Below are positions 16,147-19,903 of a stretch of 24,068 nucleotides of DNA, in pieces. The position numbers and the translations under genes were made by a program. The notes below the pieces were generated by a model, which ran no database searches, was not told the DNA's origin, and worked only from the letters and a program-made list of their open reading frames with translations. The stretch is taken from positions 1-24,068 of the IMG/VR virus record IMGVR_UViG_2778261544_000011; one strand, written 5' to 3'. The first letter of the stretch is position 1; each line of letters opens with the position of its first letter. Source of the stretch: a virus. Lineage: Duplodnaviria > Heunggongvirae > Uroviricota > Caudoviricetes.

Positions 16147-16876
16147 TGGTTTCCTCCTGGCAAAGCTGGGCGACAATATCGCGATATTTATTCAGCTCCC
16201 GCAGCGCGACACAGACTCGCTCCCATTTCCGGATATCACTTTTCGCCCGACGCAGTTCGCGGTTTGCCTGTCGCAGCGATGGCAGAACCAGATTATCCAC
16301 TCGCTTCTCAAGCGGCTGCACAATGTCTGCCACAGTTTCTGTTTTAATATCTTCCTGTGTTGCAGCTTCCTGTACTGGTAACGCAACACATGCAGGCTGA
16401 GGAAAGGCTTTACCATCAGTTTCCGCTACCGATGCCGCTTTCGGCTCTGCTGGTAAATTACCGCCCGGCATGCAGTAACGAAATTTACCGTTCTGATTAA
16501 CACGAATCAGACGACCTTTGCTGATTGCCATTGCCAGCGTTGAAGCCACTTTGCGGGATGTTGTACCGAACAGCGTAGCCAGTTCATCCGCCGTTTGTGG
16601 TCCGCGTTGTTCAATCGTCGCGGTTAAATCGCACTCTGAGATTTTCGCTACTGTCGCCGTGGTGGTTTCTTCCGGCTGTTCTTCTGGCGCTGGCTGTTCC
16701 TGCTGAACGTTGTTATCAGCCACACGCCAGGTGTATACGCTTTTATCAACGAAGCCAGCCTTTTTCAGTTCCCACAGCTCGTTCAGTACTTCTTCACGAC
16801 TGATATCAAGTCGCGCAGCCAGCTCTACCGACGTGGCTTTTCCCATCGCTTTCAGTGCGTCAAAAACAGTCTCCAT
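16139..16876 (-). CDS. Hypothetical protein with an N-terminal winged-helix-like DNA-binding region (245 aa)
   Basis: ORF 16139-16942; ATG at 16876 preceded by GGGAGGAAAT; N-terminus [30 protein letters not shown]... looks like a winged-helix motif; Glu/Gln-rich central linker. Confidence 0.5.
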
Positions 16877-17576: not shown

Positions 17577-18489
17577 GGCTCACCCCCTTGCTGACTGGTT
17601 TAACCTGCGCCCTGACGTGATGTACGTGACGGGCGAATTTCTGCTCCCACTGAACCTGCGTGAAAACTTTCCCCTCCGCTGCCCAGTAGTCCCGGAAGGC
17701 GGCAAGTTCAGCAGGTGTAAATTCCGGCTCCGGCAGAGCCACTCCCCACAGTGCAGCCCGCCGTCGAAAATCCGGCGACGGATGCCAGCCATCGGTCATC
17801 GGAAATTTCCCAATGGGTTCGCTCAGGCCTTCCAGGTAATCAGGTTCCGCTGCCTGCAACGGCACGCCATTTGCCTCACTGGCCGGAGCACTCTCGCGCA
17901 CGCGCGCGTTATGTGTGGGGTTTATATATCTGTTATCTGTTATCTGGATACCGCATGACAAAGCGTTAGCCTTATCCTTAGGCTTATCCTCAGGCAAAGG
18001 GATTGCCTTATCGAATGCCATCCCCAAAGCCTCAGAAACACCGTAGGACGCGGCTCTCAGCGATTCCCTGGCCTCCCATTTGAGAGGGCAATCAGGAATT
18101 AAAGCGAATGCCTTTGCCCAGGATTTAATGACATTTATCGAGTTTGGCGGATTGTGTTTCGCAGCATTCGGGAGCCAAAAAACTCTGGCTTTGATATCTG
18201 CTTTCACCATGCCAAGATTCATGGCTTCGCCTAAGGCTAAGTCAAAGGCTTCGATATCCCACCCCAACTCTTCAGCCATTGCTGCCCGCCCGGCTTTAAA
18301 TAACCCAGGAATAATCCCGGTAAATGGACTGGTCAGCAGATAAATAAACAAACTCTGTCCACTTGGAGGCAGAGGAGATAACGCCCTAAATTTGGGATCA
18401 TCCCATATCGTTATTTTTACCTTGCGATAAGGCTCATTGTTTGCCTTAGTTTTTGGCATGGGATTTGGCATGTTTTTAGCCTTAACCAT
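17365..18489 (-). CDS. Putative replication initiator/replisome organiser (O-like by position)
   Basis: ORF 17365-18543 (first codon TTG); ATG at 18489 preceded by GAGG; immediately upstream of the P-like gene; contains an iteron-like repeat array. Confidence 0.5.
17923..18012. repeat. Iteron-like direct repeats with a TTATC core inside the O-like gene (candidate origin)
   Basis: tatctgttatctgttatctgg (17928-17946) and gccttatcct-tag-gcttatcctcagg...gccttatcg (17968-18012). Confidence 0.5.
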
Positions 18490-18568
18490 AATTGCCTCAT
18501 CTGGTGTCGAACCTTCCTCCGGATATAATCTGTGATTCCCCAATCAACAGAACCAAAGGAGGTTCGAC

Positions 18569-19024
18569 ATGTCTTTAATGGCTGTTTGCCAAAAAATTAA
18601 AAATCACATGCGCACTGTGTACAAAATTAACCAGCACGACCACGACATGGTTAACCTGGTAACATGCAGGGCTATAGTTCTCACCCGCTTCCACCTGATT
18701 CTTACAAATCACTCACGGGATTCTCTCCTGAGCCCCAGTAGCTATGATTCGCTGGCGAGATTGCTATACCAGGCAAGTGAAAAACGTATTACTGATCCCT
18801 TATCTGTTTCCCCTGTCCTTGCTCTTCACATTCTGGAAGACGCTCTCTATGACCCCCGTCAGGAATGCGACTATCAATTTCTTGAAGCTGAGAAATCAAT
18901 GAGAGAATGGTTCGTTGAATATCGCGAACGGCAGCAAAAGTTACCCTCAGAGTATTCAGAACTTCCGCAACTTCGCTGGAGTGACCTTCCGAACGAATTA
19001 TTTGCTCTGACCCCAGAAAATTAA
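18569..19024 (+). CDS. Hypothetical protein (151 aa) encoded antisense to the early-right operon
   Basis: Textbook SD (AAGGAGG, 6-nt spacer) before the ATG at 18569; TATAAT hexamer at 18526-18531; overlaps the competing minus-strand ORF 18789-19202. Confidence 0.4.
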   Translation: MSLMAVCQKIKNHMRTVYKINQHDHDMVNLVTCRAIVLTRFHLILTNHSRDSLLSPSSYDSLARLLYQASEKRITDPLSVSPVLALHILEDALYDPRQECDYQFLEAEKSMREWFVEYRERQQKLPSEYSELPQLRWSDLPNELFALTPEN

Positions 19025-19221
19025 TTCTTGGGGATAAATCGTCCATCACTGAGCGCAGGCTAAGTTCTGCGCTCTGAAGCTTCCGAACCGAAGTTTCTGT
19101 ACCCCAACCCGCAATTTCTGCATTTTTTGCAAGTTTCAGGATCCAGTCTCGTAGTTCGCCGGGAGTAAGATTTCCGGCATTTATGTACGGTTTGATTTTC
19201 ATTATTGGATACCCTATTCAA

Positions 19222-19644
19222 TCAATGCACTACAACAGAATCGTCGGACGCTCCACCACCGCTGAAATGTGCTTTCCGGTAAACGGCCTGGACTGCATCA
19301 TCATGCGCATCAATTGCCGTACTCAACGCTTCCTGCGCCGCCAGTAATGCACGGCGTTCCAGGGTATCGAAGATGCAGAGTCGGTGACGCAGCTCGCGCG
19401 GAAGAATTGCCAGAACCGCAGGGATCAGTTTCTGAATTTTTTCCCTTTGCGCTTTCGTTTCACCTTTTAACCAACGGTGATAGATGTTCTGCTGATTATT
19501 CCAGTCCTTGCCTGGTACCAGGGGCAATTCGCCGCCCCCCTGGCGCAGATATTCTTCAGTAATTGCACTGGCTACCCATGCCTGCCCTTTTTCAGCAGCC
19601 AGGGCTAACAACACTGATTCGATGTGCTCATGCTTGATTTTCAT
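19222..19644 (-). CDS. ydaT: YdaT-like protein (Rac prophage YdaT family)
   Basis: 140-aa ORF starting MKIKHEHIESVLLALAAEKG..., recalled as closely resembling K-12 Rac YdaT; ATG preceded by AGGAG; follows the ydaS-like gene. Confidence 0.6.
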   Translation of the reverse strand: MKIKHEHIESVLLALAAEKGQAWVASAITEEYLRQGGGELPLVPGKDWNNQQNIYHRWLKGETKAQREKIQKLIPAVLAILPRELRHRLCIFDTLERRALLAAQEALSTAIDAHDDAVQAVYRKAHFSGGGASDDSVVVH

Positions 19645-19903
19645 GAATCAACTCCTGTGCATTTTGTGTGTTAGCCTTACATCCAACAGGTAAACCGTCG
19701 GTTGGGTTAGGGTAGATATCAGGCCGAAGTTCATGAGGTGTAACCTCGAAATTCGTAGCCTCTGCGATACGCAATACCTTTTCAGGGCTTAACTGACTAC
19801 GTCCAGTAGCAACGAGGCTAATCATTGATTGCGAACAACCAGCCAGCGCGGCCAAACAAGACTGTCGTACACGATTTTTTTTCAAATATTCATCTAATGT
19901 CAT
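19628..19903 (-). CDS. ydaS: Cro-type/YdaS-like helix-turn-helix protein
   Basis: ORF 19628-19942; preferred start is the ATG at 19903 with AAGGTGA; HTH-like QSCLAALAGCSQSMISLVATGR; divergent from the repressor gene. Confidence 0.55.
   Translation of the reverse strand: MTLDEYLKKNRVRQSCLAALAGCSQSMISLVATGRSQLSPEKVLRIAEATNFEVTPHELRPDIYPNPTDGLPVGCKANTQNAQELIHENQA

Follow-up and report, generated by a model that had tools for sequence, protein, structure and literature searches.

Convergent genes with a predicted shared coding core form a probable accessory cassette in the early-right region of Rac-like lambdoid prophages

In phage lambda, the interval between cII and the replication gene O contains pO, the promoter of the oop RNA, a 77-nt non-coding transcript with a strong terminator. 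This RNA is complementary to the 3' end of cII and, through RNase III, reduces cII expression; interference between convergent promoters is likewise established. Here we analyse the equivalent interval of a Rac-like lambdoid prophage of Escherichia coli, represented by IMG/VR record IMGVR_UViG_2778261544_000011 (positions 1 to 24,068; this whole stretch of 24,068 nt is referred to below as the window). In it, a plus-strand open reading frame (ORF) of 151 codons faces a minus-strand ORF of 137 codons that belongs to the early-right operon, and the two overlap tail to tail. Comparison with divergent homologues makes it very likely that both ORFs, hereafter the plus gene and the minus gene, are real genes that share a dual-coding core.

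As at pO-oop, the antisense unit of the window is flanked by a CII analogue (or cro) and by the replication gene O, and its predicted transcript, driven by a promoter of its own, would run against the early-right operon and reach into the 3' end of the early gene upstream; by analogy, duplex RNA and interference with rightward expression might be expected. Unlike oop, however, the unit encodes a conserved 151-residue protein and the gene that it overlaps is not cII, and no sequence or Rfam similarity was found. Long antisense overlapping pairs of E. coli O157:H7 and Pseudomonas (for example ano, asa and the pairs of PMC9927249 and PMC8850804) likewise have frames on opposite strands of which one is annotated but, going by titles and abstracts, these are mostly young ORFs embedded in older genes and are supported by expression, whereas the window pair is arranged tail to tail, appears to comprise two comparably old genes and has comparative support (selection on both frames and conservation across a superfamily). 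The plus gene is also similar to phage morons in its autonomous promoter-like leader, the low GC content of the cassette, its patchy distribution and its repressor-gene orientation, so that a moron reading is plausible; it differs from them in being inseparable from an opposite-strand gene of the early operon with which it shares coding DNA, and in having a leader that is portable rather than private.

The preliminary description of this locus, made from the window alone, had noted a 151-aa plus-strand ORF with a Shine-Dalgarno (SD) sequence and a TATAAT about 38 bp upstream. All three are present (AAAGGAGG being the SD sequence and the TATAAT lying 39 nt before the ATG; coordinates are in Table 1), and the placement of the ORF antisense within a minus-strand operon, between ydaT-like and O-like genes, was borne out by the Pfam assignments of its neighbours, which form a ydaS-ydaT-...-O-P series. 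The overlap with the 137-aa minus-strand ORF, estimated at about 236 bp, is exactly of that length. The view of the plus gene as a separately signalled accessory gene fits its conserved sigma-70-like leader, lower GC content and patchy distribution; homology searches gave no informative family for either protein.

The relation of the two frames in the overlap is such that codon position 1 of the plus frame lies opposite position 1 of the minus frame, plus position 2 opposite minus position 3, and plus position 3 opposite minus position 2. Substitutions were analysed among nine divergent cassettes by pairwise Nei-Gojobori estimates with codon bootstrap intervals. Outside the overlap, each frame evolves as a coding sequence, with ratios of non-synonymous to synonymous substitution (dN/dS) of 0.12 for the plus frame (18569-18788) and 0.25 for the minus frame (19025-19190), where diversity at minus-frame codon positions 1, 2 and 3 is 0.48, 0.37 and 0.61; in control frames, the ratio of the proportions of non-synonymous (pN) and synonymous (pS) differences was about 1-1.4. 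Within the overlap, only the plus frame is constrained in 18789-18878, and a reduced synonymous rate in both frames is confined to the core (18879-19021). There, pS was 0.39 (bootstrap interval 0.30-0.49) in the plus frame versus 0.73 (0.68-0.78) outside, and 0.30 (0.22-0.39) in the minus frame versus 0.72 (0.67-0.77) in the segment that only the minus gene occupies, the intervals being non-overlapping in both comparisons. The core also has the lowest non-synonymous divergence in either frame (pN 0.23 and 0.24). These patterns indicate that both genes are under purifying selection and that the truly dual-coding stretch is about 143 bp long. The preliminary description had judged that at most one of the two ORFs was likely to be real, and had proposed comparing conservation and codon substitution in both frames, with conservation of the minus frame alone as the outcome that would speak against the plus gene. 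The opposite was found: both frames are conserved, both show coding-type substitutions outside the overlap and both show suppressed synonymous change within the core, so that the two are not rivals.

For the window sequence taken by itself, chance is a weaker adversary in one direction than in the other. When the plus protein was held fixed and its gene synonymously recoded, the minus frame was stop-free across the overlap in 23% of trials, versus only 0.7% for an open plus frame when the minus protein was held fixed; co-open frames in this single sequence are therefore surprising in one direction only, and weakly. The feature as a whole is nonetheless far above chance, because both frames are open with coding-type substitutions in divergent homologues and because the SD and -10 are part of a leader that is conserved in 44 variants.

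The plus protein is exactly 151 aa long in homologues down to 49% identity (Salmonella, Serratia and metagenomes), and an alignment of 11 family members, including that of a second E. coli prophage described below (locus L004), occupies 151 columns with zero gaps down to 44% identity. Its C-terminal motif, LP(E/Q)L(R/Q)W(S/N)DLPNELF, is invariant in the family (LPxLxWxDLPNxLF in the 11-sequence alignment), and an exhaustive profile search of 1.84 billion proteins returned 24 cluster representatives, the full-length ones all being of 148-162 aa with this motif kept. The functional part of the minus protein is about codons 1-108 (19202-18879). Codons ~109-137 (18878-18792) constitute an unconstrained, variable tail, with a minus-frame dN/dS of 1.55 in 18789-18878, in agreement with the range of lengths among homologues (110-139 aa) and with the AlphaFold2 (AF2) model, a long helical hairpin with a predicted local distance difference test score (pLDDT) of 73 in which residues 116-137 are disordered (pLDDT <50). 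At the other end, the family has a conserved N-terminal motif, P-x-I-N-A-G-x-L-x-P-x-E-L-x-x-W, and a conserved start region, and good ribosome-binding sites can be read off the alignment in other contexts (GGAGGAAGT-ATG in locus L042 and AAGGAGG in L041).

Neither protein had a match in Pfam, NCBIfam or PADLOC, only families annotated as of unknown function (phrog_37051, phrog_8304) were matched in PHROGs, and PDB sequence profiles gave nothing for either. The AF2 model of the plus protein is all-helical (pLDDT 68), and both models match only generic helical bundles or hairpins. These generic folds, the convergent gene order and the missing Pfam, NCBIfam and PADLOC matches also led us to reject assignment as a type II toxin-antitoxin system. 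No report on the cassette turned up in the literature when accessions, locus tags and the leader sequence were searched for, and papers on the ydaS/ydaT switch of CP-933P and Rac do not mention it.

Conserved association of the two genes was evident at every locus that we fetched through the plus protein, some of them with very distant plus homologues: in 61 of 61, a convergent minus homologue overlaps the plus 3' end, and the plus protein was never found without this partner in at least six different neighbourhoods. These loci come from E. coli, Salmonella, Serratia, Erwinia and metagenomes, and their contexts differ. Thus, another prophage, in E. coli ETEC1732 (L004), carries a 66%-identical copy of the cassette with both ORFs open and an identical ribosome-binding site, directly downstream of a cro-like gene and followed by a Rha regulator gene, and both frames are also open at the Serratia, Salmonella and metagenome loci.

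Some loci provide natural dissections of the pair. Two independent assemblies (L007 and L036) have a 1-nt deletion in an A-run (window 18599-18603) that puts the plus gene out of frame after codon 11 and leaves the minus gene intact, which could be a natural knockout, a homopolymer assembly error or slippage-prone variation. In Trabulsiella guamensis (L012) the plus gene is intact and the N-terminus of the minus gene has been lost and replaced by unrelated sequence. The plus gene itself is lost in L142, where the leader abuts the minus stop codon and the residues of the minus motif that follow the FL.S.QIIRS region have drifted from RSxDHSS to FPKEQYG; this drifting part may elsewhere be held in place by the plus gene. 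In L143, two tandem minus paralogues occur, of which only the second is overlapped by a plus gene, and since the non-overlapped one keeps FL.S.QIIRS, this part of the motif belongs to the minus protein itself.

A remote relative of the pair is built around ECs1072, a curated NCBIfam family (NF033230) and the commonest gene, or cargo, found behind the leader that precedes the window plus gene, being annotated under the leader match in most of the O157:H7 genomes sampled. ECs1072 lies at the same point of the map, between ydaS/ydaT and the replication gene, in CP-933/Sp-type prophages of O157:H7 and O26, has the same leader fused at its ATG, encodes a protein of about 151 aa, and has a convergent partner (phrog_8304; 151-169 aa in aligned members) that overlaps its 3' end by 269-323 bp. 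The partner ORF is open in all divergent variants, with a substitution pattern that is the same in kind and weaker, and was left unannotated by the Prokaryotic Genome Annotation Pipeline (PGAP) in the locus inspected (L141, E. coli O26:H11 11368). Profile-profile comparison with hhalign related ECs1072 to the window plus family with 82% probability (E 1.1e-5, 74 columns) and the two minus partner families to each other with 95.5% probability (E 1.3e-8). As this remote pair keeps the same architecture, the tail-to-tail overlap would be older than detectable protein similarity.

By the same comparisons, the window pair is placed as a sister family of the ECs1072 pair and not as a member of it. 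The window plus protein had no hit to the NF033230 hidden Markov model at E <= 10 (cut-off 70 bits), and its distant relatives P0041 and P0053 scored 21.7 and 29.2 bits, compared with 105.7 bits for a true ECs1072 protein. The C-terminal motif differs (LPELRWSDLPNELF in the window versus SE(A/D)EWD in ECs1072), the overlap is shorter in the window, and PGAP keeps the plus gene at ECs1072 loci but the minus gene at window-type loci. In O157:H7 Sakai grown without induction, microarrays have detected ECs1072 and found it differentially expressed at a growth transition (PMC2241611); its leader sequence had no match in the parts of the EDL933 transcription-start supplements searched. In L141 and O157:H7 prophages of the ECs1072 type, the cassette adjoins paaR2-paaA2-parE2-like repressor and toxin-antitoxin genes as well as ydaS/ydaT.

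Table 1. Coordinates of features at the overlapping gene pair and of its neighbours in the window. Diversity is given for plus-frame codon positions 1/2/3.
Feature	Position	Strand	Diversity	dN/dS (plus frame; minus frame)	Remarks
DnaT/O-like replication gene	17365-18489/18543	-			Pfam DnaT domain; lambda-P-like gene next (Pfam Phage_lambda_P)
Portable promoter-leader of plus gene	18501-18568	+			~68 nt
-35-like CTGGTG	18501-18506	+			17-nt spacer to -10
Leader inverted repeat	18506-18568				left arm GTCGAACCTTCC 18506-18517; right arm GGAGGTTCGAC 18558-18568, including SD
-10 TATAAT	18524-18529	+			39 nt before ATG; overlaps TAATCT 18526-18531
Inner hairpin of leader	18530-18550				
SD of plus gene, AAAGGAGG	18555-18562	+			6 nt before ATG
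Plus gene (ORF)	18569-19024	+			151 aa, ATG start
Segment A, plus only	18569-18788		0.42/0.30/0.55	0.12; 1.22	plus coding only
Overlap of plus and minus ORFs	18789-19024				exactly 236 bp
Segment B1, minus tail	18789-18878		0.33/0.24/0.63	0.20; 1.55	plus coding only
Segment B2, shared core	18879-19021		0.24/0.25/0.29	0.48; 0.75	both constrained
Dual-coding core (predicted)	18879-19021	both			~143 bp; plus codons ~104-151 (last ~48), minus codons ~61-108
Segment C, minus only	19025-19190		0.48/0.61/0.37	1.27; 0.25	minus coding only
Minus gene (ORF)	18789-19202	-			137 aa, ATG start; part of early-right operon; matches phrog_37051
GC-rich hairpin	19051-19074	+			27 nt past plus stop, inside minus coding sequence; candidate 3' end/terminator
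YdaT_toxin-family gene (ydaT)	19222-19644	-			Pfam E 2.4e-11
YdaT-box over ydaT start codon	19634-19651	-			regulator site of operon carrying minus gene

The SD and TATAAT that had looked textbook in the window belong to a portable leader, which remains highly similar (the exact arm/SD pattern or a few differences) where the plus proteins behind it are only ~25-35% identical. All 44 leader variants have (T/C)TGGTG, a spacer of 17-19 nt and TAnnnT, with the outer T's and the A invariant and the middle bases varying freely, and the nine variants whose sole TAnnnT lies at a 19-nt spacer all have a TGn extended -10. This layout has the signature of a sigma-70 promoter, and it is likely that the plus gene has a promoter of its own, with transcription predicted from the -10 spacing to start near 18536 and to give a leader RNA of ~33 nt.

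The leader was found in 635 of 5,426 complete E. coli genomes (~12%), in only one of 50,697 sequenced phage records and, by an exact scan for both of its arms, in at least 80 viral contigs. Among the matches listed it precedes 11 ORF clusters, at least 10 of them unrelated cargo families, which include the ECs1072 family, a 97-aa family, a BssS-like protein and orphans of 70-145 aa. Each of the nine loci examined closely has its cargo in the same slot, antisense to the early-right operon between cro/ydaT and a replication or Rha gene, and the leader would thus mark an accessory-gene hot spot at the map position of lambda oop. It appears to be undescribed, as far as our literature search found, and a search of Rfam with window 18300-19400 gave no match with an E-value below 0.9.

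The spacer of the putative promoter (GTCGAACCTTCC) is complementary to the SD region (GGAGGTTCGAC), and the leader is predicted to fold well as either RNA (plus strand, -27.3 kcal/mol, z -4.3; minus strand, -32.2 kcal/mol, z -4.4). We considered the hairpin as an SD-sequestering device of the plus mRNA, an idea weakened by the predicted start, which is downstream of the left arm, and by the better folding of the minus-strand RNA in 41 of 44 variants. Lying mostly outside the predicted plus mRNA, the hairpin may instead have a role in the early-right transcript, immediately ahead of the replication gene. Direct reading of the sequences showed that both arms have changed in L012 (CGAA/TTCG to CTGA/TCAG). 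RNAalifold applied to 13 leaders recovered the stem but, as the arms hardly vary, no compensatory change on both sides; outside the L012 lineage, we therefore claim no support from covariation for the structure. A further promoter-like sequence on the plus strand, TTGGCA-16-CATAAT (18465-18492; 10 of 12 matches), lies within the first part of the O-like gene and immediately upstream of the leader. A transcript from this site would contain the whole leader hairpin, and the site is probably a chance or context-specific occurrence, because it lies outside the conserved cassette.

Downstream of the plus gene, segment 19020-19100, which contains the GC-rich hairpin of Table 1, folds with a z-score of -3.2. 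Of 14 family members, 8 have a comparable 3' hairpin, which is followed by a U-run only in L010 and L045. The plus transcript probably runs at least 290 nt antisense into the minus mRNA.

We propose that the two ORFs form a conserved two-gene accessory cassette of Rac/CP-933-type lambdoid prophages rather than a gene with its shadow ORF, an explanation that we consider probable on balance when taken as a whole. The minus gene would encode a helical-hairpin protein of ~108 residues with a dispensable tail, read in the early-right operon (ydaS/cro, ydaT, minus gene, O, P), and the facing plus gene a helical protein of 151 residues expressed from its own sigma-70-type promoter and the strong ribosome-binding site of the leader. 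While repressor keeps the early-right promoter off, the plus gene alone would be expressed; once that promoter fires, polymerases would cross the plus gene antisense on their way to the replication genes O and P. Collision of polymerases and an mRNA duplex over at least 236 nt would then make expression of the two genes mutually antagonistic, as for lambda oop versus cII, and it is with this antagonism by convergent transcription, drawn by analogy, that the proposal becomes tentative. Since the pairing is constant, the comparison suggests that the two proteins act on the same process in opposite prophage states, perhaps on each other. The arrangement would predict a lysogenic/induced switch in prophages that also carry virulence-linked and toxin-antitoxin genes. 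A broader conjecture, and a rather improbable one, is that the cro/CII analogue and the replication genes flank a general antisense cargo dock marked by the leader, whose cargo would be expressed in the lysogen and throttle early-right read-through as a protein-coding equivalent of pO-oop, with the ECs1072-like superfamily having become a two-state module through 143-320 bp of dual-coding DNA, its products antagonistic at both the RNA and the protein level.

Several observations weigh against the proposed cassette. The evidence for the promoter consists of sequence conservation; its -35 element is weak, which is why a generic promoter scan missed the TATAAT, and that scan found no excess of promoter-like sites over shuffled sequences (2 found versus 2.2 expected). 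The minus-strand RNA of the leader is the more stable in 41 of 44 variants (mean -31.0 versus -24.1 kcal/mol), and part of the leader conservation may serve the early-right transcript and not the plus gene. Other cargo genes use the same leader with no minus partner, so the leader does not need the overlap in order to function. A canonical terminator for the plus gene is missing from the window, where no U-run follows the 19051-19074 hairpin. Each gene can also be damaged singly (the plus gene in L007/L036, the minus N-terminus in L012) and the plus gene can be lost, as in L142, so that neither is strictly dependent on the other. Finally, the substitution statistics are pairwise, were obtained from nine sequences that are not phylogenetically independent, and involve synonymous sites that are nearly saturated outside the core.

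Alternatives that dispense with one of the genes, or with double coding, fare poorly. If only the plus ORF were real, the minus ORF would be a shadow called because it is co-directional with the operon, as might be argued from the 23% of recodings in which the minus frame is open by chance, from its unconstrained tail and from several divergent loci where only the plus ORF was called. Yet the 178 bp of the minus ORF outside the overlap show minus-frame periodicity (0.48/0.37/0.61) and a dN/dS of 0.25 versus 1.27 for the plus frame, the N-terminal motif and start region are conserved, one paralogue has no plus overlap, and the protein is a remote homologue of phrog_8304; this reading is strongly disfavoured and extremely improbable. 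The converse, in which the plus ORF is an antisense frame open by accident and its SD and TATAAT are likewise fortuitous, can appeal to annotation, with PGAP calling only the minus ORF in window-type genomes and PHROGs holding only minus partners, but is contradicted by the gapless plus-family alignment, by a dN/dS of 0.12 in 18569-18788, where there is no minus ORF, by the 0.7% frequency of an open plus frame in recodings, by the retention of the leader with SD and ATG in 44 variants and by the status of its remote relative ECs1072 as a curated NCBIfam family, and we regard it as practically without a chance. Synonymous change in 18879-19021 could also be suppressed at the RNA level, by a terminator, a processing site or a surface for antisense pairing. 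The two mRNAs are complementary in the core, structured elements lie nearby (19051-19074), and RNA-level and protein-level selection are inseparable with these data; both frames, however, run in phase from clear coding regions through the core and are stop-free in all homologues, pN is also lowest there, and the minus motif survives in the non-overlapped paralogue, and an RNA element in place of double coding is thus highly unlikely.

Harder to dismiss is the reading that both genes are real and their overlap an incidental compaction, the plus gene being an ordinary moron beside an unrelated early gene, with unrelated products and a convergence of no regulatory import. It would accommodate the leader's unrelated cargo with no minus partner, the occurrence of the minus family with no overlapping plus gene (the first paralogue of L143, and L142), the ~30 unconstrained codons at the end of the minus ORF and the loss of either gene singly. 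It leaves unexplained why the plus family always has its minus partner (61 of 61 loci, at least six neighbourhoods) and why the sister ECs1072 family has the same arrangement though homology of the plus families is barely detectable; chance overlaps that cost both proteins synonymous freedom are not expected to last at such divergence, and incidental compaction is unlikely on the whole, if still deserving of serious attention. An effector-antidote module of the toxin-antitoxin or defence kind is a further possibility: a plus protein made in the lysogen would harm incoming phages or the induced prophage, the early minus protein would neutralise it, and the shared DNA would link the two. Co-inheritance of the pair with opposite predicted expression states, the location in an accessory hot spot by the immunity region, where O26/O157 prophages also have paaR2-paaA2-parE2 toxin-antitoxin genes, and the plausibility of an overlap as a device that enforces linkage are all compatible with such a module. 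There is, however, no PADLOC, Pfam or NCBIfam match, the folds are uninformative, the convergent layout is unlike that of type II systems, and persistence of the plus gene in L012 despite the lost minus N-terminus argues against a lethal effector; we consider this reading decidedly improbable.

Read as a conserved cassette, the locus offers a comparative case of two apparently old protein genes on opposite strands that share ~143 bp (269-323 bp in the sister family), a kind of overlap that is contested in bacteria and routinely removed by annotation pipelines. In all window-type E. coli genomes PGAP calls only the minus ORF, as a hypothetical protein, leaving ~300-500 bp empty before the replication gene; on several divergent contigs gene callers gave only the plus ORF, and both are annotated in one phage record. 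None of this disagreement is evidence for either gene. As PGAP retains the minus gene of one family but the plus gene of its sister, thousands of genome records nevertheless lack half of each pair, many of the sampled O157:H7 genomes among them.

The annotated gene order of E. coli strain ETEC4085, which has a near-identical stretch, is recE, kilR, ydaF and a helix-turn-helix repressor-like gene, with a YdaS-family gene, ydaT, a hypothetical protein, a DnaT-like replication gene and replication protein P on the opposite strand. The cassette has a GC content of 0.44-0.46 versus 0.50-0.60 in its flanks, and its distribution is patchy, 42 of the 5,426 E. coli genomes having it compared with 1,507 that have the flanking ydaT/O DNA. 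A tblastn search of the 50,697 phage records gave one match, near-identical to the window. A record described as 'Actinobacillus phage vB_Apl-pPE4' (PP818812.1, locus L003), with Actinobacillus pleuropneumoniae as stated host, encodes cassette proteins 99-100% identical to those of the E. coli Rac-like prophage behind an identical leader, and its neighbouring genes (ydaT, kil, exodeoxyribonuclease VIII) are annotated as in the window; the host assignment looks questionable.

Over the start codon of ydaT, the sequence TGATTTTCATGAATCA (19635-19650) corresponds in reverse complement to the core of the YdaT-box that has been footprinted in Rac, ATGATTCATGAAAATCAA (PMC11879457). The pattern TGATT-N(2-10)-AATCA occurs four times in the window versus 0.58 expected: at this site, at two further N6 sites, one within the plus ORF (18696-18711) and one near 16.5 kb (16494-16509), and in an N4 version at the predicted plus transcription start (18533-18546). 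We considered control of the plus gene by YdaT through these box-like sites and do not go beyond recording them. The site inside the plus ORF is polymorphic among close relatives (HLIL versus HLLL variants), which makes its function doubtful, and the leader site is N4, not N6.

The start of the neighbouring DnaT-like/O-like gene is placed by PGAP at the equivalent of 18279 on the minus strand, giving 304 aa. An alternative ATG at 18489, with GAGG 5 nt upstream, gives 374 aa, and since residues 20-355 of this longer version align with positions 3-302 of phrog_1408, a PHROG replication-initiator profile of 302 positions, the PGAP start looks ~70 codons too short.

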